Source of the DNA: a bacterium
GTDB lineage: Bacteria > Electryoneota > JAOADG01
NCBI GenBank assembly: GCA_963681965.1
Contig: OY820579.1
Coordinates: 3,072,001-3,136,000 of the forward strand
Direction of reading: 5' to 3'
DNA: 64,000 nucleotides
Below are positions 42,986-53,051 of this stretch, piece by piece (position 1 is the stretch's first letter; each line of letters starts with the position of its first letter). The notes under the pieces were generated by a model. The model searched no databases and was not told the DNA's origin. It worked only from the letters and a program-made list of their open reading frames with translations. The position numbers were made by a program, and so were the translations under genes.

Positions 42986-43719
42986 CCTTTTCTCCAAACA
43001 GAAACCCAATCGGTCGATAATACCGGATCGAAACCGATTCCAGCTAAATTACCGCTGATGCGAACCGGTTTCCAACCAGCCTTACGGAAAATATTTTCCA
43101 ATTTTTTGGCGCGAATTGGCCAGAGCGGCACACTTGAAGATTGCCACCGATCCTTATGCCAAAGAGCAACAGTCATAATGACCGGCTGACGCGGGGTTTT
43201 GGGGAAATCCAACACTCGTAAGAATAAATGATCTTCGCTCATCACCGGTTTTAAAAAGCGTTCGCGGACTTCCAGTAAACGATCCCAATTTCGATTTTCG
43301 ACGATTAACATGCCACCGCGTTTAGCGCGCTTGAATGTTGCTTCGGCAAAGTCGCCGATTCGAGTCGGCGTCAGGTGAGAAAGCGTATTCCCCAGACAGA
43401 GTTGAGTGGCAAATCCCTTCCAATCTGCTGGCGTACCATCAACCATATCGCCGACAACGATGGGTGGATTCCATTTCGCCAATTTCTTCTGAGCAACTTT
43501 CACGATATTTTCGGAGAGATCCACGCCGTAAGCATGATAGCCTCGTTCTAACAGAGGTTTTAGATGTCCTCCGGTACCACAACCCAAATCTAGAATTGGA
43601 CCAGCTTCCGGTTCGGGAAGAACCAGCATCAATCCCGGTAATTCACGTTGCAAGCGATCCTGCCAATTGATCAACCGGTCGTAATTGTCCTGTAACCAGT
43701 TATAAAGTATAGTTGGCAT
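42982..43719 (-). CDS. Class I SAM-dependent methyltransferase
   Basis: ILDLGCGTG, GVDLS, GDM, CLGNTLSHL. Confidence 0.88.
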   Translation of the reverse strand: MPTILYNWLQDNYDRLINWQDRLQRELPGLMLVLPEPEAGPILDLGCGTGGHLKPLLERGYHAYGVDLSENIVKVAQKKLAKWNPPIVVGDMVDGTPADWKGFATQLCLGNTLSHLTPTRIGDFAEATFKRAKRGGMLIVENRNWDRLLEVRERFLKPVMSEDHLFLRVLDFPKTPRQPVIMTVALWHKDRWQSSSVPLWPIRAKKLENIFRKAGWKPVRISGNLAGIGFDPVLSTDWVSVWRKG

Positions 43720-43743
43720 AGTGTGCTCTCTTTGTTAGTGTGA

Positions 43744-44562
43744 TTATTTTATTCCTAAATCACGATGTTGTAACGCCCATAACGTAGTGAACCAGCCAAA
43801 TGTCGATACCAGCGATAAAATGATCAATCCCGTCCAATTCCAACCATCGGTTGGAAACAAGGTTCGCGGTTCGACCCAGTGCCACAACGAAAATATAATA
43901 TAGGGCTTTAATAGCTTTATGCTTCTACAGATTACTTCCCACAAAATCATTATTAAAACAAAACCGACGATACCTCCCAGAGCAATTCGAAAGCGACCCC
44001 AAATCGCCGCTAACATAGCCCCGAGACTTCCAATCGCGATCGACCATAATATTTGCATCCCCAGCGCTGCGAACAACATCGGAACGCGAACATTCGATAA
44101 TTCCGTGAAATGCAATGTAGCAATCCACCATGTAAATGTTCCGATAAGCTCGATAATCAGAAAACCGGTCAGTTGCGCGAGAATGATCGCTGCTAACCAC
44201 GTCTGCCGGCTGATCGGTCGCGAAAAAACAACGTCTAGCACTCCCCGCTCCTGATCCGATGCAATGTGCCGTAGCGGGAGTTGGATCGCCCAGAAAAGCA
44301 ACGTGACAGTGAATAACGGGTGAGCAAGCGATAACAACAGTGAACCGGTTGGATCCAGTAACATCGGTACATCGGACGAAACCGAAGCTTGAAATTGCGC
44401 GGGCAACATCTTCATCAATTTTACCAATCCCTCGCGAAGGGCTGTCTGTGCAGTCATCCAAGCAAATAGCCAGTTAGCCAACCCAATCCATAGCGAAAGT
44501 AGTAGTAAAACGATCCGATGACGGCGATAGAAATACCGGATGACAATGAGAAATTGTTTCAT
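43744..44562 (-). CDS. ABC-2 type transporter permease
   Basis: Six hydrophobic segments; ERGVLDVVFSRPISR; C-terminal RDL. Confidence 0.85.
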   Translation of the reverse strand: MKQFLIVIRYFYRRHRIVLLLLSLWIGLANWLFAWMTAQTALREGLVKLMKMLPAQFQASVSSDVPMLLDPTGSLLLSLAHPLFTVTLLFWAIQLPLRHIASDQERGVLDVVFSRPISRQTWLAAIILAQLTGFLIIELIGTFTWWIATLHFTELSNVRVPMLFAALGMQILWSIAIGSLGAMLAAIWGRFRIALGGIVGFVLIMILWEVICRSIKLLKPYIIFSLWHWVEPRTLFPTDGWNWTGLIILSLVSTFGWFTTLWALQHRDLGIK

Positions 44563-45260
44563 TTCATTGCCACCATTTCGAAAAAGATCTCTTCGATTTC
44601 AGTTGTCGACGAATAATCCGAACGCTTCAGTATACCGGCTAACTCACCATTGTTAAACACCGCGATCCGATCTGCAAGTTCGTAGGCTTCGCGAAGATCG
44701 TGCGTCGATAGTAAAAGCGTCGTATTGTTCGATCGGAGTTTGAGCAGATTCAGTAAACTTCGCTGTTGGATCGGATCGAGACCATCACTTGGTTCGTCTA
44801 GTATGATTAGATCGGGACGATGCTCCAGTGTGGCAACCAATCCCAATTTCCGTTTCATGCCTTGCGAAAGTGTGCCGGTATAGGAGGTAAGACGATCCTG
44901 CGGAAAATTCAATTGATCTAATAATTCAAGCCGGTAGCTGGGATCCGGTCGACCAGACAGTTCTGCAAGAAATGTCAACCACTCTCCACATTTCACTCCT
45001 AATGGCCACCCCATTTCGCCCGGTAAGTATCCCACTCTCGCACGGGAAGCATTTGATGACGGTTCTCGATCGAAGATGGTAATCGTACCGGAAGTCGGAG
45101 AGATGAGACCGAGCAAGAGGCGAATCGCAGTGGATTTACCCGCGCCATTGGGTCCTAGAAACACCAGACATTCGCCGGAACAACCTTGCAACGTTAATGA
45201 ATTTAACGCTGTAAACGAACCATACTGCTTCGTTACGTTCACATATTCAAATGGTGTCAT
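44559..45260 (-). CDS. ABC transporter ATP-binding protein
   Basis: GPNGAGKST, LSQGMKRK, ILDEPSDGLD, STH. Confidence 0.95.
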   Translation of the reverse strand: MTPFEYVNVTKQYGSFTALNSLTLQGCSGECLVFLGPNGAGKSTAIRLLLGLISPTSGTITIFDREPSSNASRARVGYLPGEMGWPLGVKCGEWLTFLAELSGRPDPSYRLELLDQLNFPQDRLTSYTGTLSQGMKRKLGLVATLEHRPDLIILDEPSDGLDPIQQRSLLNLLKLRSNNTTLLLSTHDLREAYELADRIAVFNNGELAGILKRSDYSSTTEIEEIFFEMVAMK

Positions 45261-45287
45261 TAAAATGTTCCGGTAGATCGTATATCG

Positions 45288-46340
45288 TTATTGCGCTTGA
45301 ATAAACGAACTGACCAGCCTGAAGGTCGCATCCAATGCATCGATATGAGTCCGCTCGTAGCCGTGCGAAGCGGCTACACCGGGACCGATCAATGCGACTT
45401 TCACGTCTTTTCCAGCGCGTAGTGCCGCCGAGCCGTCGGAACCATAAAACGGGAAAACATCGGTTTTGTACGGAATTTTATTTTTCTCGGCAATTTCGAT
45501 CAACTGCTGAGTCAATTCGTAATGATATGGACCCGAGGAATCTTTAACACAGATCGACACGCTGTATTCATCGCCTGCGACGCCATCTCCTACGACACCC
45601 ATATCGACAATAATGAGGGCGTCAAGATTCTCCGGTAGCCCGGCAAGACCCTGCCCGGTTTCTTCGGTTATGTTAAAGAGGATGTAAATCTCCTGAACTT
45701 CTTTCAACAATCCCGATTTCGGATCGAGTAATTGATCCGATAACGCCAGCAATACTGCGGCGGACGCTTTGTCATCCAGAAATCGTGAGTTGATATATTC
45801 GTTGTCGAATCGGAAACCGGGATCCAGTGTGACATAACTCCCGATCGGAATCAATTTATCCAACTTTTCCTTTTCGCGAATCCGCTTATCAATCCGAACG
45901 TGTAGATCGTCGAATTTTATTCGCTCTTCTTCCCATTTCTTCGAAACATGAGTGGATGGATTATCTGGTAGGATTGTTCCGGAATACTTCGTGCTATCGA
46001 AAGCGTGTATCGTACAATGATCGCCGATTACATTGAATGCCGGAAGGCTTCCGACCGGTGCGATTTTAATTTTCTCGCCAGTCACACTCCGAACCATCGC
46101 CCCGAGTGTATCGACGTGCGCCGCAAAGGCGAGTACTTTCCCTGCCTCATTCTCGCCTTCGAACGAAAATCGCACTGCCCCTTTTCGGGTTGTCGTGACC
46201 TGAATGTTTTTCGATCGTGCCTGTTCGACCAGAAAATCCTGAACATATCTGGTAAATCCTGTCGGAGAGGGGATCCTAACCAATTTCTCGAAATAGGAAA
46301 CAATGGTTTTGGGATCGATTTTGAGGGTGGATGATTGCAT
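45288..46340 (-). CDS. M42 family metallopeptidase
   Basis: PSPTG, AHVDTLG, SRFLDDK, TEE, VDMG, KDSSGPY, GSDGS, SHGYER. Confidence 0.92.
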   Translation of the reverse strand: MQSSTLKIDPKTIVSYFEKLVRIPSPTGFTRYVQDFLVEQARSKNIQVTTTRKGAVRFSFEGENEAGKVLAFAAHVDTLGAMVRSVTGEKIKIAPVGSLPAFNVIGDHCTIHAFDSTKYSGTILPDNPSTHVSKKWEEERIKFDDLHVRIDKRIREKEKLDKLIPIGSYVTLDPGFRFDNEYINSRFLDDKASAAVLLALSDQLLDPKSGLLKEVQEIYILFNITEETGQGLAGLPENLDALIIVDMGVVGDGVAGDEYSVSICVKDSSGPYHYELTQQLIEIAEKNKIPYKTDVFPFYGSDGSAALRAGKDVKVALIGPGVAASHGYERTHIDALDATFRLVSSFIQAQ

Positions 46341-46470
46341 GGATAAGTCCTTCCTGCCTAAGTCAGACTAATTTCATAACCATTTAATATATCCCGCTAA
46401 TAAAACAGGAAGCAAGGGGAAAAGATAGTTCTACGATATTCATGCATTGTCATTGGTATAAGTAATACAT

Positions 46471-46497
46471 AAAAGGGAGGGCTTCCGCGCCCTCCCT
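46471..46497 (-). terminator. Intrinsic terminator of the gatED operon
   Basis: Minus strand reads AGGGAGGGC-GCGGAA-GCCCTCCCT-TTT. Confidence 0.75.
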
Positions 46498-46531
46498 AAC
46501 TTATCACCACGAACTATGAACCAAGCACCTA

Positions 46532-47920
46532 TTACTTCCGAACCTTCGAGATAAATTCCTCGACTTCGGGAATACCGCCTTGCATGATCAGATAACCGTT
46601 GCTGGGTTCGCGATCAGTGATTTCACCATTGATCGGAGTATACATGATTTTCCGGACTTCAGCCAAATCTTCCGTTTGACCAAGTGCCCACCCCAACTTC
46701 ACATAAGCGACTTCGGGAAGCATATTCGCCATTGGTACGACTCCCAGTTCCATCATGTCCCGACCGGTATCGTACACATACATCTGGACATAGCCCCAGA
46801 GTGTTTGAACCGTCATGTAGACCGCGATGTTCTTCTCTTTGGCACGTTTCAATGCCGGATACAGCGGTTTATTGACATGACCCAATCCGGTACCTGCAAT
46901 AATAATACCCCGATAGCCATTATCGATCATGGAATCGATCATATCCGGTTTCATGTTCGGGTAGTAGTAAACGATTCCGACCGCTTCTTCGAAGGCGGTA
47001 TTGATCGTCACTTCACGGTCGTAACGCCGTTTCTTGTAATCGGTACGAAGTGGTGTAATTTTACTTCGACTTACCATAGCAATCGGAATATCGCCGATCG
47101 TGCGGAACGTCGAACGGTAACTCGAGTGCATCTTACGTACCCTTGTACCGCGATGCAGTAAACCATATTCGTCGGAAGTAGGACCGAACATACAGACCAT
47201 CACTTCGGCGATATCGCCTTCGGCAGCGGCTTTGACACTGTGCATCAAATTCAATGCCGCATCGGAAGAGGGACGATCGCTGGAACGTTGCGAACCGACC
47301 ATCACAATTGGAATCGGCGAATTCTGAACCATGAACGAGAGAATCGCCGCAGTATGATGCATCGTATCGGTACCATGTCCGATCACAATACCCTGTACGC
47401 CCTTGGCAATCTCCCTACCGATCGCTTCGGCAGTACCACGCCACTGTTCCGGACCCATATTTTCACTGAATACACCGTACAGTTTTTCAGTCTCCAGATT
47501 GCAGATGTCTGCCAATTCCGGTACTGATCCATACAATTCACCCGGGGAAAAAGCGGGAATTACCGCTCCGGTACGATAGTCCAACCGACTCGCAATCGTA
47601 CCACCGGTTCCTAACAATTTTACCTTCGGTCTTCGAGGATCGAACGGAAAATCTTTTTCGGGAATTTTGTAGTGTGCTTCTTTGCGTCCGATAATATTCA
47701 CTCCGCGGACATTTTCGGCATTCACTCCGATATTGTAACCCGAACGCAACTTCATCACGATATGTAACGGATCGGCAGTTTCCGATCGCGGTAAAATAAT
47801 ACCGGTAAATACGCCGGTATCGGTCTTCAATTCGATATCGCTCCAGACTTTCGCATCGAATTTTTGAAGCGTTGCTAGTGCTTCGCCGCGATACCCTTTA
47901 TAGTCGTCATTCGCCGTCAT
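46532..47920 (-). CDS. gatD: Glu-tRNA(Gln) amidotransferase subunit D (archaeal type)
   Basis: GatD N-domain (GIILPR...IVMKLRSGYNIGV) plus a type I asparaginase core: TGGTIASRLDYRTGAV, HGTDT, GSQRSSDRPSSD, RKMHSS, MLPEVAYVKL. Confidence 0.93.
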   Translation of the reverse strand: MTANDDYKGYRGEALATLQKFDAKVWSDIELKTDTGVFTGIILPRSETADPLHIVMKLRSGYNIGVNAENVRGVNIIGRKEAHYKIPEKDFPFDPRRPKVKLLGTGGTIASRLDYRTGAVIPAFSPGELYGSVPELADICNLETEKLYGVFSENMGPEQWRGTAEAIGREIAKGVQGIVIGHGTDTMHHTAAILSFMVQNSPIPIVMVGSQRSSDRPSSDAALNLMHSVKAAAEGDIAEVMVCMFGPTSDEYGLLHRGTRVRKMHSSYRSTFRTIGDIPIAMVSRSKITPLRTDYKKRRYDREVTINTAFEEAVGIVYYYPNMKPDMIDSMIDNGYRGIIIAGTGLGHVNKPLYPALKRAKEKNIAVYMTVQTLWGYVQMYVYDTGRDMMELGVVPMANMLPEVAYVKLGWALGQTEDLAEVRKIMYTPINGEITDREPSNGYLIMQGGIPEVEEFISKVRK

Positions 47921-49896
47921 GCTTGCTTCTCCTGCAACGCGCTATTCAATCTGCTGGCAACCAGTTTGCCTTCTACCCGTCCGCGAACTTTTTTCATGAC
48001 CATCCGCATCGCCGTCCGGAACTTTTGATCGAATTGCGGGATTGGTTTGTGCGTCACTTCAACTGCTGCAACTTTTACAACCGTATCGAATTCTCCGGCA
48101 GTACAGATCGGCGGTAAAGCCTCGATGCAGAATTGCCCCGAAATCGCCGTACGTTCCATCGCTTCGTAAATACCTTCTTTGGCGATTCGACCGTTCTTGT
48201 ACGCAAAGAAAATCTGCTCAATCACTTCGGGGGTAATAGCAGAAATCGAAATACGCTTTCTGCGAATTCGCTTCGGGAATTGAATCAACGCGACAGCAAC
48301 TGTTGTCGGATTTAATTTCCACTCATCGACCAATTTGTCGAACAATGGTGCATACTTCGATAGCGCTAGCGGTTGAACGCAGTCTTCGGGAATTTTGTGC
48401 TCACGATACTTGCGCTCGCGAATCCAATAATACTCCGGTAATCCTTTTTGAATGCGCTCTCTGCGCTCGGTTGTAATGCGCTTCGGTGGAAGATCGGTAT
48501 CCGGATACATGCGATCGGCACCGGGAAGAATTCGTTCGAAACCATTCGTTCCGTCACTGAGTGCCTGACGAGTTTCGGAGGGAATACCGATCGTTGCTTC
48601 GCGTGCGCGGATGATAATCTCTTTGGTTGCAGTCTCGACATCGACGAGATCGCCCCAAACCAATACAACAGTATCGTTTTCGGTTGCACCGGACGCCTTC
48701 TTCACGGCTGCCCATTCGGCAGACGATAACGTATCGTTCGGACTATCCGAGTGCAGAATGTTTGGGAGTACAGTCATACAGGCAATCACGCGAATCCGGT
48801 CTGATATCTCGCGCGAGAAATAGGTATCCGTCTGGGTTTGCCAACGGAGCAGCCCCTTGAAGCCAACGAGATTTACACAGCGGACAGTCTTACCGAGTCC
48901 GATTGCATCCCGAACCGGCTGGAACCGCGTCTTACGGAGAATCTTGGTGACATCTTCAATTCGAGATTTGAAATTTTCCGGTGTCACACCACGGCGATGG
49001 AGTTCAGCGCGTAAACGTAACAGATTCCATTGCCGCATTGCTTCGTTGTATGTCAACAATGGAATATTCGGTATCCGTGGCACACCCTTGATTTCGATTC
49101 GGGTACCGCCCTGAACACTGACATTGACATCCTGCCGTGCTGCACCGATACCGGTACGTACTTTTCCAGTGCTTCGCACCATGCGTCGCAAAATATCGCA
49201 CACTTCCGCAACTTCGATCGGGGTTTTCATCGATGGTGCAGTCACTGTTTCGATCAATGGCATACCCAATCGATCGGTCAAATAGACACGTCGGTGACCG
49301 ACATCGCTGAATTCCCGACAGGCGTCTTCTTCCAGACCCAACTGAACGATCGGAATCTCGCGATCTTTGTACGGAATATTCCCATTGACACCGACGATCG
49401 TCGTTCGTTGAAAGCCAGTGGGAATACTACCATCGAGATATTGTTTACGTGCAATGTGAATTTCATCGACCAGCGACATACCGTACAGCAATCCGATTTC
49501 CAGAGCGATGTCCAACGCTTCGTCGTTTAGTTCGAACGGTGGCGTATCGTCCATCTCGTAGGTACAGACTGTTTCGCGGTTGATGTGGTAGATGATCTCT
49601 TTTTTCGTTTTGAATTCCATCAATGCCGTACCGTCGTATTCGCCCAATTCGGACAACGTCGGTCGCATGTGTCGAAGAATTTCGGCATGGAACACATCGC
49701 TATACCGACCTGCGGGACAGCGGCAAAACAGCTTGCGTTCGGTATAAACTTGTTGGTGAATTTCCAATCCCGATTTGAATCCGACATAATCATAGTCGGA
49801 GTTCGTCATCTCGGAAAAGGGTTTGAATAGAAAAGCTTGAAGCTTCTGATCAAGCTCCTGATCGGTTTCGATTGCGTTTTGATTCGCAGAATCCAT
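47917..49896 (-). CDS. gatE: Glu-tRNA(Gln) amidotransferase subunit E (archaeal type)
   Basis: GLEIHQQ..KLFCRCP, RPTLSELGEYD, DGSIPTGFQRT, LEEDA, DRLGMPLIE, RQDVNVS, an AspRS-like insert, PGADRMYPDTD. Confidence 0.93.
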   Translation of the reverse strand: MDSANQNAIETDQELDQKLQAFLFKPFSEMTNSDYDYVGFKSGLEIHQQVYTERKLFCRCPAGRYSDVFHAEILRHMRPTLSELGEYDGTALMEFKTKKEIIYHINRETVCTYEMDDTPPFELNDEALDIALEIGLLYGMSLVDEIHIARKQYLDGSIPTGFQRTTIVGVNGNIPYKDREIPIVQLGLEEDACREFSDVGHRRVYLTDRLGMPLIETVTAPSMKTPIEVAEVCDILRRMVRSTGKVRTGIGAARQDVNVSVQGGTRIEIKGVPRIPNIPLLTYNEAMRQWNLLRLRAELHRRGVTPENFKSRIEDVTKILRKTRFQPVRDAIGLGKTVRCVNLVGFKGLLRWQTQTDTYFSREISDRIRVIACMTVLPNILHSDSPNDTLSSAEWAAVKKASGATENDTVVLVWGDLVDVETATKEIIIRAREATIGIPSETRQALSDGTNGFERILPGADRMYPDTDLPPKRITTERRERIQKGLPEYYWIRERKYREHKIPEDCVQPLALSKYAPLFDKLVDEWKLNPTTVAVALIQFPKRIRRKRISISAITPEVIEQIFFAYKNGRIAKEGIYEAMERTAISGQFCIEALPPICTAGEFDTVVKVAAVEVTHKPIPQFDQKFRTAMRMVMKKVRGRVEGKLVASRLNSALQEKQA

Positions 49897-50139
49897 AACA
49901 TCGCTCCATCTGGCGGGGATCGCGCGGAATATACATAGAATGAAAAAACAATATAAGCGATTCTAATGGATTTGAGAAAAAACGCCTCTATTTACAAAGC
50001 CTAAAGTTTCGCTTTTCATGCAACTAACTTCGTAAATCCGCAAAAAAGAATTGGTAAAGCTTAGAGAGACGGTTATATTATTGGTTTATTCACGAAAACT
50101 CTCAATTAATCGAACGATTCTCGCGATTCTGGATCTTTC

Positions 50140-51024
50140 ATGGAAATATTCGACCACTGTTTACTTTGTCAATCGGATAGAATCGTTACAATCGATGAAG
50201 ATTGTAATATTATCCGATGCAAAACTTGTGGCTTTGTTTTCCATTCTCCGCGTCCAACAGCAACTGAACTCGCACAATTCTATTCCACACCTGCACAATC
50301 CCATGATTGGCTTTCAAACGAACAAGTCCGCGACGAAATGTGGCTCCGAAGACTTCGTAAAGTACACAACTATCGGACCGAAGGATCGTTATTGGATGTT
50401 AGTACTGGGATCGGACAATTTCTTCATTTTGCTCGGAATATGTTTTTTCCGGTGACTGGTTCAGAGGTTTCCGACAGTGCGATTCGGATTGCCCGGCAGA
50501 AATATGAATTGACGTTAGAGAAAGGCACAATCAATTCCATCGATTGGAAGAACCGAAAATTCGATGTTATTACCCTATTCCATGTGCTAAATCACGAACT
50601 TGATCCGCTGGAGTTGATATTCTCTTGTAAGAAGTTGTTAAAGCCGTCCGGACTGCTGATAATCACTGTTCCGAACGATCTATCGGCGTTCAGTGCAAAA
50701 CTGAGTTCGATTTTTAAAACAATTGGAATCGGAAAATTGGTGAAGACAGAGGTAGGATTGCATAAAATCGATCTCGAAAACCCAGTTTCGAAAATTCAAT
50801 TGTCGTACTTCAATTCCAAAGTCTTGCAGATCTGTCTGCAACGATGTGGTTTTAAAATTATTGAAACCGATCTCGACCCGTATTACATCGCATCCGGATT
50901 TGATCGAGTGATGTATTCCGCTAATTACGGTTTGAGTCGAATCGTGAAAAAAGTATTCCGCACCAATATTTACGATACAATTTGGCTCGCAGCCGAATTA
51001 CCCCCGAATTCTCCACACGAATAA
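50140..51024 (+). CDS. Class I SAM-dependent methyltransferase with N-terminal CxxC pairs (polysaccharide-associated type)
   Basis: CLLC...CKTC; LLDVSTGIG; FDVITLFHVL; LKPSGLLIITVPN. Confidence 0.8.
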   Translation: MEIFDHCLLCQSDRIVTIDEDCNIIRCKTCGFVFHSPRPTATELAQFYSTPAQSHDWLSNEQVRDEMWLRRLRKVHNYRTEGSLLDVSTGIGQFLHFARNMFFPVTGSEVSDSAIRIARQKYELTLEKGTINSIDWKNRKFDVITLFHVLNHELDPLELIFSCKKLLKPSGLLIITVPNDLSAFSAKLSSIFKTIGIGKLVKTEVGLHKIDLENPVSKIQLSYFNSKVLQICLQRCGFKIIETDLDPYYIASGFDRVMYSANYGLSRIVKKVFRTNIYDTIWLAAELPPNSPHE

Positions 51025-51045
51025 CGCATTTCTAAGAATCGCAAA

Positions 51046-51948
51046 TCACGGTTTTTGCTTACAGCCAAACATGATGCTGAGGATTTGCAATGCAGCAGTA
51101 AATCTTCGCTGAACGATTCGCTTAAAAAGACTGTAGATCATCATCAAATACACAGTCGGTAGAAAATACCAATAGTGTTTTCTGGTTAAATAAATCCGAT
51201 TTCTGAACGTATAGAAATCGGAAAACAGCGTTTTTTTTCCAGCGCGATCGTTGGTTCCGATACTCGCACCCTGTTTATGGTACACAATACTTTTTTTGGC
51301 ATAAGATAGGTTAAAATGTTGTTTCTTAGCTCGGATCCCCCAATCAATCTCTTCCATGTACAAAAAAAGAAATTCATCCATCAATCCAACCGTCTGTAAG
51401 AATTCTTTCGATGCTAACACCGAAGCGCCGCAGATCAGATCTAGCTGCTTGTTTCGTATATTTGTATCTACCTTGTTGCGCGCTAATCCTTCACCGTAAA
51501 AACCGGATAATCCTGTCGCAGGCTGGTACCAACCGCCACCTAACGCCTGTACCCGATGTCGATCGTCTTCATACAAAATCGTCGATCCACACAACCCCGT
51601 CGTCGGATCATTCTTCATCGTATCGACTAAACTGGTCAATGCCTTCGGATCGACCCGCGTATCGTTATTGAGGATCCATACGTAGTCACAATCGGATTGA
51701 GCAAGTGCATGTCGGATCCCGACGTTATTTCCGCCGGCATAACCGAGATTCTCGCCTGTGAATAACAGGTCAAATCGTTTGTTACAAAACTCCGATAATT
51801 TGACCTGTGACTCGTCCGTCGAACCATTATCGACAACGATTACACGGTAGGAAGGATAGGACAATTGAAAGATGCTTTCGAGACACTGGATTGTTTCCTG
51901 CCACCCGTTCCAATTCAGGATGACGATATCGACGGTAGGTTGTTTCAT
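51046..51948 (-). CDS. Glycosyltransferase family 2 (rhamnosyltransferase-like)
   Basis: IVILNWNG, VDNGSTD, NLGYAGGNN, LNNDT, FLYMEEIDW. Confidence 0.92.
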   Translation of the reverse strand: MKQPTVDIVILNWNGWQETIQCLESIFQLSYPSYRVIVVDNGSTDESQVKLSEFCNKRFDLLFTGENLGYAGGNNVGIRHALAQSDCDYVWILNNDTRVDPKALTSLVDTMKNDPTTGLCGSTILYEDDRHRVQALGGGWYQPATGLSGFYGEGLARNKVDTNIRNKQLDLICGASVLASKEFLQTVGLMDEFLFLYMEEIDWGIRAKKQHFNLSYAKKSIVYHKQGASIGTNDRAGKKTLFSDFYTFRNRIYLTRKHYWYFLPTVYLMMIYSLFKRIVQRRFTAALQILSIMFGCKQKP

Positions 51949-53051
51949 TTCGAAGACCCTACCCGATTGAGTAAAAATCGTTCGAATGCAGCAATCGATT
52001 CTTCCCAGCGAAATCGCTGAATCGCTTGATTTGCCTGTCGAGCTAATTGAATGCGGTATTCCGGTTGCTCAATCAAATGAATGATGTTTATCGCCAAATC
52101 GCTGCTGAGTTTTGGCGGACTAAGCAATGCTGTTTCGTTATGGATCGCAAATTCGCGGTGTCCGCCGATATCGGTCAGACAAAGCGCTGCCCCGCATTGT
52201 GCTGCTTCAGCAGGCGGTAATCCCAGCCCTTCGATATGACTTGGTGATATAAAGATCGCAGCCTGATTGTAAATCGCTCTTAATTGAACTTGGGTTGGTT
52301 TTTGTCGGTAAACAATCCAATCCGGTAAAATCTCCGGTCGCGGTATCACACCGAAACAAACGCACGCGAGATCGGGAAATCGCTGTTTTACCTCTTCTAG
52401 CGCAGAAATACCGTCTGCAGTCCCTTTTAATTTCTCTTTATGACATAACATGACTACCGACTTCGGATTTCGATGCTCGATCTGCGTATCGATCCCGAAT
52501 ATTGAAAAGTCAAGTCCGTTCGGGATATACTCGCATTCAACATCCAGCTTCTGTCCGTATTCCTGTAACCAGCGGGAAATGACGATTTTATCCAAAGGCA
52601 ATCGCCAAGTTCTTACGACTCGATCGTGATCGACATTTTCAAATACTGTTTCGAGACCTTGGATTAAATAGATTTTCTTACCTTTTTCGGGTTGGTATGA
52701 ATTTACCCACTCAGCAGTTTCCCAAGCAGTTGCTACGACAAAATCGGCGTCGGGAATATTTTTTTCGGATAAACTGGGGATCCAGATCATGTTTACTTGA
52801 TTGTCGATTTGAAACCACTCATGTGGTAAATACCCGCCAAACATACCGATTTTTCGAACCAGATAGATCAAAAATCCGCGTATCAGCCGCCAAGTTCTGG
52901 ATTCATCGATCAACCGATAAGGACTGTGAACAACGGTTACATCGTGACCGCGTCGAACCAAACCGTTGGCATATTCATAGACAACTTTAAATCCTCCGAC
53001 AGGATTTTGTCCGGATCCGGGAAGTAAAATTGTGATTTTTATCTGTTTCAC
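51945..53051 (-). CDS. Glycosyltransferase family 4
   Basis: PVGGFKVVYEYAN, ATAWETA, EGLGLPPAEA. GTG at 53051 preferred because it avoids overlap with the upstream gene. Confidence 0.9.
   Translation of the reverse strand: MKQIKITILLPGSGQNPVGGFKVVYEYANGLVRRGHDVTVVHSPYRLIDESRTWRLIRGFLIYLVRKIGMFGGYLPHEWFQIDNQVNMIWIPSLSEKNIPDADFVVATAWETAEWVNSYQPEKGKKIYLIQGLETVFENVDHDRVVRTWRLPLDKIVISRWLQEYGQKLDVECEYIPNGLDFSIFGIDTQIEHRNPKSVVMLCHKEKLKGTADGISALEEVKQRFPDLACVCFGVIPRPEILPDWIVYRQKPTQVQLRAIYNQAAIFISPSHIEGLGLPPAEAAQCGAALCLTDIGGHREFAIHNETALLSPPKLSSDLAINIIHLIEQPEYRIQLARQANQAIQRFRWEESIAAFERFLLNRVGSSK

Follow-up and report, generated by a model that had tools for sequence, protein, structure and literature searches.

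A bacterial branch of the archaeal-type GatDE amidotransferase, possibly kept for asparagine synthesis on tRNA

The gatDE operon

The stretch of DNA analyzed here (the window: 64,000 nucleotides, positions 3,072,001 to 3,136,000 of contig OY820579.1, assembly GCA_963681965.1) belongs to a bacterium of the phylum Electryoneota, whose genome is called G000 below, and carries on its minus strand an operon of two genes, gatE and gatD. Judged by its sequence, the operon is an intact and functional-looking version of the tRNA-dependent amidotransferase GatDE of archaea. An earlier note on this DNA had recognized it as such and offered two explanations, namely a stably acquired archaeal pathway to Gln-tRNA(Gln) with changed tRNA recognition, or an enzyme repurposed for another tRNA or substrate. 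The operon consists of the following parts (window coordinates).

47917-49896, minus strand: gatE, intact open reading frame (ORF) of 659 amino acids; amidotransferase/kinase and tRNA-binding subunit, belonging to a bacterial GatDE clade
46532-47920, minus strand: gatD, intact ORF of 462 amino acids; ammonia-releasing subunit of the asparaginase type, including the N-terminal domain of GatD
47917-47920, minus strand: ATGA shared by the stop codon of gatE and the start codon of gatD (translational coupling), read from the sequence
46474-46497, minus strand: intrinsic-terminator-like hairpin 3' of gatD with nine pairs (seven G-C) and a loop of six
49950-50105, minus strand: upstream intergenic region, in which two sigma-70-like matches (at 50105-50077 and 49978-49950) are possible promoters only

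The hairpin lies 35 bases from the gatD stop and its T-rich tail reads TTTATGTATT; the two intact genes, their overlap and a terminator of their own had been described correctly. The sigma-70-like matches upstream of gatE agree with the consensus at 10 of 12 and 9 of 12 positions and carry little weight, since the scan returned 13 sites as against 6.5 in shuffled sequences.

Both proteins were assigned with NCBI equivalog profiles (the NF and TIGR models), which have curated cut-offs. GatE scores 541.6 bits with NF003107 (cut-off 456) and 482.3 bits with TIGR00134 (cut-off 319.55), and its best score with a GatB model is 128.3 bits, below the cut-off of 338. GatD reaches 512.5 bits with NF003217 (cut-off 310) and 505 bits with TIGR02153 (cut-off 324). 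The pair is therefore not a GatB with a plain L-asparaginase, and the identification as archaeal-type GatDE stands. The Pfam domains GatD_N, Asparaginase and Asparaginase_C are all found in GatD, in agreement with the N-terminal domain and asparaginase core reported for it before.

The two subunits can be aligned over their full length with solved chains, GatE end to end with 1zq1_C (355 bits) and 2d6f_C (325 bits) and GatD with 1zq1_A (401 bits) and 2d6f_A (387 bits). Relative to these chains GatD has kept the motifs TGGTIAS (residues 105-111), HGTDT (182-186) and RKMH (262-265), and T108 (within TGGT), T184-D185 and K263 are conserved against both; their catalytic roles (Thr nucleophile, Thr-Asp, Lys) we take to be those of the asparaginase family. 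The translation of gatE contains the previously listed motifs GLEIHQQ, RPTLSELGE, DGSxxxGFQRT (here DGSIPTGFQRT) and RMYPDTD. An AspRS-like insertion had also been seen in GatE, and both this insertion and a YqeY-like tail are supported by a continuous alignment to residues 8-629 of 1zq1_C; the Pfam family GatB_Yqey scores 25.6, just below its cut-off of 27, and no Pfam match to the GAD domain was obtained in this GatE. H47, E189 and E216 occupy the positions of His15, Glu157 and Glu184, the Mg ligands of the Methanothermobacter enzyme (PMC2330236).

Assembly and bacterial setting

The contig is a closed bacterial chromosome of 4.24 Mb (a single contig of 4,244,867 bases, 99.91% complete). Around the operon lie a bacterial small signal recognition particle RNA, a tRNA-Ala, DnaX, two flagellins and two Por_Secre_tail proteins, so that, of the bacterial surroundings described earlier, dnaX-ffs, the flagellin and the tail proteins of type IX secretion were recovered. 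The GC content of the operon is 0.490 as compared with 0.474 for the genome, with no step at the borders and matching flanks; in composition the operon is ameliorated to its genome.

That the operon reflects an assembly chimera or archaeal contamination has almost no chance of being right. The genome consists of one contig, and in the Logan contigs of runs X1 and X3, which come from two studies, positions 43500-53000 of the window lie within one 35,208-base piece each, which bridges both flanks with 0 differences. GC equals that of the flanks, and homologues are present in hundreds of bacterial assemblies, several of them on contigs longer than 1 Mb. Nothing was found in favor of a chimera, and it was rejected with the caveat that the source sample may be among these two runs.

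A widespread bacterial clade nested among archaeal sequences

Beyond the host genome, identity to the window GatE is 63-71% for the 119 best protein clusters, and the organism labels among them are all bacterial (Calditrichaeota, Ignavibacteriae, Bacteroidota, KSB1, FCB group, 'bacterium'). In a collection of species-representative genomes, 584 of 599 candidate stretches encode a GatE relative; the best 80 of these are all titled as bacterial bins, several again on contigs above 1 Mb. Across these 80 loci gatD adjoins gatE in 61, some of the others being cut by contig ends, no neighbor other than gatD is conserved (the next commonest family occurs in 11), and no tRNA gene lies within 6 kb of gatE. 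Within the phylum of the host, GatE scores above the cut-off with intact frames in 43 of 79 genomes, and three more carry contig-end fragments. The clade also occurs in genomes labelled Ignavibacteria, Calditrichota, Kapabacteria, KSB1 and Aminicenantes. What had been presented as a singular oddity belongs to a bacterial clade of very large size, which lowers the surprise of this locus and raises the interest of the clade.

A tree of 125 full-length GatE sequences (FastTree) splits with full support into 48 and 77 rows. The window falls on the smaller side, together with every row that has a bacterial label and 33 cluster representatives without one; on the larger side any labels are archaeal only (Heimdallarchaeota, Thorarchaeota, Thermoprotei, Parvarchaeota). 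With six bacterial GatB sequences as the outgroup, the clade of bacterial type (29 rows, SH-aLRT 100), with the window in it, is nested among archaeal GatE rows, and its sister is a Heimdallarchaeota-labelled cluster (SH-aLRT 96). We read this provisionally as a derivation of bacterial GatE from within Archaea, perhaps from the Asgard side, since the rooted tree comes from a quick search with a distant outgroup. An organism name was available for only one of the 20 bacterial-clade representatives looked up (Deltaproteobacteria), and Atlas taxon labels of clade representatives are mixed and partly inconsistent (e.g., 'Archaea 62%, commonest Fermentibacterota'); the deep branches of the clade are here assumed to be bacterial. 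The GatE proteins of family f7 of the same phylum fall into a sub-clade different from that of the window copy, so the gene has also moved among bacteria.

Compared with rows of the archaeal clade, the window GatE shows 31-38% identity (41% for one row). At 12 alignment positions, most of them in the catalytic cradle, the 48 bacterial-clade and the 77 archaeal rows are fixed differently. Bacterial CTYEMDDTPP stands against archaeal CLVE.DEEPP and bacterial RKQYLDGSIPT against archaeal MRK.ViDGSNts, and in the AspRS-like insertion domain the bacterial rows have a 3-residue insertion and have lost the archaeal HsDELpYgi, with only hsd left. The catalytic core is near-invariant across the 48 bacterial-clade rows.

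Between the window and its family-mate G043, GatD is 85% and GatE 66% identical at the protein level. Nonsynonymous divergence (pN) is 0.10 for gatD and 0.25 for gatE, while synonymous divergence (pS) is saturated at 0.79 and 0.84. By these comparisons gatDE is under purifying selection and not a decaying passenger. Accordingly, we regard it as quite improbable that the operon either serves some other substrate or role, such as the clearing of mischarged tRNAs or a non-translational aminoacyl-tRNA pathway, or is in decay. Gene content does make GatDE dispensable for translation in almost every host, and its distribution is patchy, with losses exemplified by a pseudogene in G035 and by G042, a genome of the same genus as the host in which no GatE was found. 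Such a role or fate sits badly, however, with the strong purifying selection, the intact frames in 43 of 79 phylum genomes, the ameliorated composition of the operon and the lack of any conserved neighbor but gatD or any nearby tRNA gene across the 80 loci.

Two GatE-like sequences of the phylum are interrupted by stops and are probably decaying copies. At G035:C33:547245-549124 a GatE-like frame has one and three in-frame TGA codons in two adjoining matches, and at G052:C2:14298-16137 a second GatE-like copy has two.

Decoding genes of the host

The host genome encodes gatA (544.6 bits) and gatB (530 bits) next to each other, AsnRS, a single AspRS of bacterial type and two GluRS, one with a divergent C-terminal part; neither GlnRS nor AsnA was found in it. 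This answers the search for gatCAB, glnS, asnS and gltX that had been suggested for this genome. An ORF of 85 amino acids ends 8 bases before gatA, at the place expected for gatC (L105 4283-4540; genome C1:2814282-2814539). It matched no NCBIfam or Pfam family, the two collections searched, so that gatA and gatB are the only evidence for a complete GatCAB in the host. A single gene of the AsnB family is located among genes for glycosyltransferases. It scores 362 bits with a broad model and 239 with that of AsnB proper (cut-off 499), and it looks more like a polysaccharide-type paralogue than like AsnB proper.

ARAGORN called 47 tRNA genes in the host. Both tRNA-Gln genes (anticodons CUG and UUG) have U1:A72, as has tRNA-Asn, whereas tRNA-Glu and tRNA-Asp have G1:C72; tRNA-Asn has U1:A72 in G007 and G033, too. 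This pattern is the ordinary bacterial identity rule. Archaeal GatDE reads the A1:U72 pair of tRNA-Gln (PMC2330236, PMC2811023), which is absent from both host tRNA-Gln genes, and tRNA recognition by the host enzyme therefore cannot equal that of the archaeal one. The change in recognition that had been anticipated is borne out to this extent. For tRNA-Gln(CTG) (genome C1:2010625-2010700), ARAGORN draws an additional T at the 5' end and an acceptor stem of eight pairs; when the second base is taken as the first, the gene shows a regular stem of seven pairs, with U1:A72 and G73.

In comparison with the archaeal enzymes of M. thermautotrophicus (2D6F) and Pyrococcus abyssi (1ZQ1), the bacterial GatDE thus has the same two subunits in the same domain order, aligns over its full length, and shares the Mg ligands, the asparaginase-type catalytic residues and both equivalog hidden Markov models (HMMs). 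It differs in being found in a bacterium with U1:A72 tRNA-Gln and with GatCAB also present.

Bacterial GatDE is not tied to the glutamine route

GatE, GatB, GlnRS, AsnRS, the AsnB family, GluRS, AsnA and archaeal-type AspRS were scored in the 79 genomes of the phylum, and the table of gene content covers 78 of them, all but G035 with its stop-interrupted GatE. Exactly one of GatB and GlnRS is present in 66 of the 78 genomes, both in seven and neither in five. The two behave as alternatives, and GatE is indifferent to the choice: among its 46 carriers, 24 have GlnRS only, 16 GatB only, four both and two neither. These last two are genomes of 87% and 92% completeness. GlnRS and AsnRS are found in each of the five GatE carriers looked at in other phyla, and GatB is found in two of these. 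It is therefore well supported that bacterial GatDE is a second, accessory amidotransferase, standing beside GatCAB in the host, and is not depended on for Gln-tRNA(Gln).

The classical activity may nevertheless have been retained. GatDE could be a Glu-tRNA(Gln) amidotransferase in which recognition of the first pair has switched to U1:A72, serving as a backup or conditional route in parallel to GatCAB, for example one with asparagine as the donor. This is the only activity demonstrated for the family, the catalytic residues are unchanged, and the host itself, with two GluRS and no GlnRS, certainly makes Glu-tRNA(Gln). Archaeal GatDE uses asparagine about as well as glutamine (PMC2330236), and a gene for an asparagine synthetase within the operon of three genomes (see below) fits a supply of asparagine as donor. 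On the other hand, sole reliance on such a route would be expected somewhere, and only two of the 46 carriers, both with incomplete genomes, lack GatB as well as GlnRS. Of the 24 carriers having GlnRS without GatB, 19 have a single GluRS, so that the substrate Glu-tRNA(Gln) is not expected there. No case was known in 2014 of a bacterium encoding the two routes to Gln-tRNA(Gln) side by side (PMC4206432), and the AsnA pattern of the phylum would be left unexplained. Taken together, we consider this reading unlikely.

The first of the two explanations offered for the operon, a stably acquired archaeal Gln-tRNA pathway, is not supported: the host has kept gatA, gatB and two GluRS, GatB or GlnRS is present in 44 of the 46 carriers, and no lineage clearly depends on GatDE for glutamine, so that such a pathway is not what keeps the gene. 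The second, repurposing for another tRNA or substrate, is the one favored here, though unproven, and the comparative data point to tRNA-Asn.

A link to asparagine

Within its own phylum, GatDE tracks the supply of asparagine. The aspartate-ammonia ligase AsnA is encoded by four of the 46 GatE carriers as opposed to 24 of the 32 non-carriers. Two contrasts between GatE and AsnA fall within a single genus (G000 versus G042 and G022 versus G023); in the first, G000 has GatDE and no AsnA, and in G042 an AsnA fragment and no GatE was found. On an AsnRS tree of 73 genomes (the six without an AsnRS match left out), eight independent pairs differ in GatE; AsnA and GatE change in opposite directions in about 5.2 of these pairs and in the same direction in 0.3, while in 2.5 AsnA does not change. 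Outside family f7, AsnA occurs in one of 39 carriers and in 13 of 15 non-carriers. AsnRS is present in 73 of the 79 genomes, and, being nearly universal, it makes GatDE unnecessary for the charging of tRNA-Asn. An archaeal-type AspRS2, the second AspRS of the kind seen in Thermus, scored above the cut-off in none of the 79.

In three genomes from three genera of family f7, gatE and gatD have asnA itself between them, in the same orientation, and these are all the f7 carriers that have AsnA.

L093 5670-10235 (G054): gatE-asnA-gatD; asnA scores 294.5 bits with TIGR00669 (cut-off 292.8)
L094 4483-9982 (G057): gatE-asnA-gatD, with a 216-amino-acid ORF also between asnA and gatD
L095 1009-5648 (G071): gatE-asnA-gatD

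Two further f7 genomes have a small ORF between gatE and gatD (L097 5857-6237 in G052 and L096 8376-8777 in G073). One is DUF559 endonuclease-like (111.7 bits), the other belongs to no family, and their position suggests insertions into the operon.

Ten genomes of the phylum encode GatDE, GlnRS and AsnRS in the absence of GatB, AsnA and any AsnB-family gene (in one of them, G018, GlnRS was seen as a fragment only), and the same content is found in two Aminicenantes-labelled genomes. It corresponds to the gene content with which Bdellovibrio synthesizes asparagine on tRNA, except that GatDE replaces GatCAB. Bdellovibrio possesses GlnRS and AsnRS, a single non-discriminating AspRS of bacterial type, and a GatCAB that serves for asparagine (PMC4206432). 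More generally, GatDE carriers resemble the GatCAB-based asparagine synthesis of Bdellovibrio bacteriovorus, Thermus and Deinococcus in having AsnRS, a separate route to glutamine and one retained amidotransferase, often in lacking AsnA and AsnB, and in the U1:A72 pair of tRNA-Asn. They differ in that the ammonia-releasing subunit is the asparaginase-type GatD here and the amidase GatA there, and GatDE has no GatC. GatE is moreover only a distant paralogue of GatB, and activity of GatDE on Asp-tRNA(Asn) is inferred. PMC4206432 lists nine genera that have AsnRS and GlnRS without GatCAB, AsnA or AsnB, and these might include carriers of GatDE.

Proposed function

The reading preferred here, with a probability of roughly 40%, is that bacterial GatDE is a working amidotransferase kept mainly for Asp-tRNA(Asn), and hence for tRNA-dependent asparagine synthesis. 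By homology and conserved residues, GatE activates an acidic amino acid that is already esterified to the wrong tRNA, phosphorylating its side-chain carboxylate at the expense of ATP, and GatD frees ammonia from glutamine or asparagine, which then amidates the activated intermediate. The substrates would bear the bacterial U1:A72 pair, with recognition of the acceptor end changed from that of the archaeal enzyme. Comparative genomics further suggests that a non-discriminating AspRS of bacterial type would supply the Asp-tRNA(Asn) to be amidated, and some activity on Glu-tRNA(Gln) may remain. There is good support for the chemistry and for the accessory status; which tRNA is the target is what we infer.

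Several observations weigh against this choice. The AsnA split outside family f7 is a post hoc cut among kin that are not independent, and the sign test on the independent pairs reaches a median p of only 0.0625 (range 0.031-0.375). The anticorrelation is not reproduced in the class around G080, where 65 of 111 genomes have GatE, 24 have AsnA and 14 have both, as against 14.05 expected by chance. In the class around G079 (111 genomes), AsnA occurs in none of the 22 GatE carriers and in 12 genomes overall, a weak test because AsnA is rare and the expected overlap is only 2.4. Many GatE carriers have an AsnB-family gene. Furthermore, if its AspRS were relaxed, the GatCAB of the host could itself amidate Asp-tRNA(Asn), and a second enzyme is not obviously needed. 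An equally possible meaning of the asnA genes within the operon is that GatD takes the amide from asparagine, and archaeal GatDE is specific for Glu-tRNA(Gln) (PMC2811023).

Alternatively, the enzyme may have dual specificity in the manner of bacterial GatCAB, accepting mischarged tRNAs of every kind provided that they have U1:A72 and a suitable D-loop, its role being set by whichever synthetase of the host is relaxed. This would suit the host, in which both amide tRNAs have U1:A72 and both acid tRNAs G1:C72, as well as the occurrence of GatDE with either glutamine route and with or without asparagine synthetases; archaeal GatDE, too, separates Gln and Asn substrates by the tRNA and not by the amino acid (PMC2330236, PMC2811023). 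It also predicts hosts that rely on GatDE alone for glutamine, and none was found in the phylum. We hold dual specificity to be rather unlikely.

A retained function in Asp-tRNA(Asn) amidation can be extended to a wider account, which we consider doubtful in its entirety. An old and widespread bacterial GatDE clade would have been seeded once from an Asgard-like archaeon and would have swapped its job, with GatDE making Asn-tRNA(Asn) and GatCAB or GlnRS providing for glutamine, in a mirror image of the archaeal division of labor; in a dozen or more lineages without AsnA, AsnB and GatCAB, GatDE would be the sole route to asparagine.

GatDE has been called archaea-only in the literature, including reviews up to 2022 (PMC2811023 among the sources), and the earlier description of it as archaea-specific still matches the literature searched. 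No paper describing or characterizing a bacterial GatDE was found there, most subscription journals lying outside the search, and the genome papers of Caldithrix and Melioribacter make no mention of amidotransferases. A large and conserved bacterial clade changes this archaea-only picture. It offers a natural experiment in which an amidotransferase has re-learned tRNA identity, from A1:U72 to U1:A72, and a testable claim, namely that the substrate of GatDE may have moved from tRNA-Gln to tRNA-Asn. Should this shift be real, asparagine auxotrophies predicted from genomes of these phyla would be erroneous, and a footnote would have to be added to the history of glutamine and asparagine in the genetic code.

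Flanking genes and minor observations

The direct neighbors of the operon, none of which is conserved beside gatDE in the 80 loci, are as follows.

45288-46340, minus strand: M42 aminopeptidase
43744-45260, minus strand: ATP-binding cassette (ABC) transporter ATPase with ABC-2-type permease
50140-51024, plus strand: class I methyltransferase, divergent

Against the flanks of the operon, G042 of the same genus shows 67-70% identity over most pieces, on contigs that are short there. Beyond the structural RNAs named above, no T-box or other Rfam family was found in the window at gathering scores. In Clostridium acetobutylicum, work by Saad and colleagues from 2012 is said to have described amidation genes under T-box control, in an operon with an asparagine synthetase gene beside gatCAB; that system differs from the present one in its use of GatCAB and in its T-box.

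The AsnRS proteins of G030, G034 and G039 (L159, L117 and L135) stand on a branch about 4.7 long away from the other 70 of the phylum and are of a different type, possibly acquired separately. In the Aminicenantes-labelled genomes G083 (L187 208-457, minus strand) and G080 (L188 1526-1775, plus strand), the anticodon loop of tRNA-Asn carries a group I intron (Rfam RF00028, 90.3 and 87.8 bits, respectively), and ARAGORN therefore calls no tRNA there. Finally, a tRNA-SeC with anticodon TCA is called by ARAGORN in the host genome outside the window (C1:2414708-2414803), so the organism probably uses selenocysteine.

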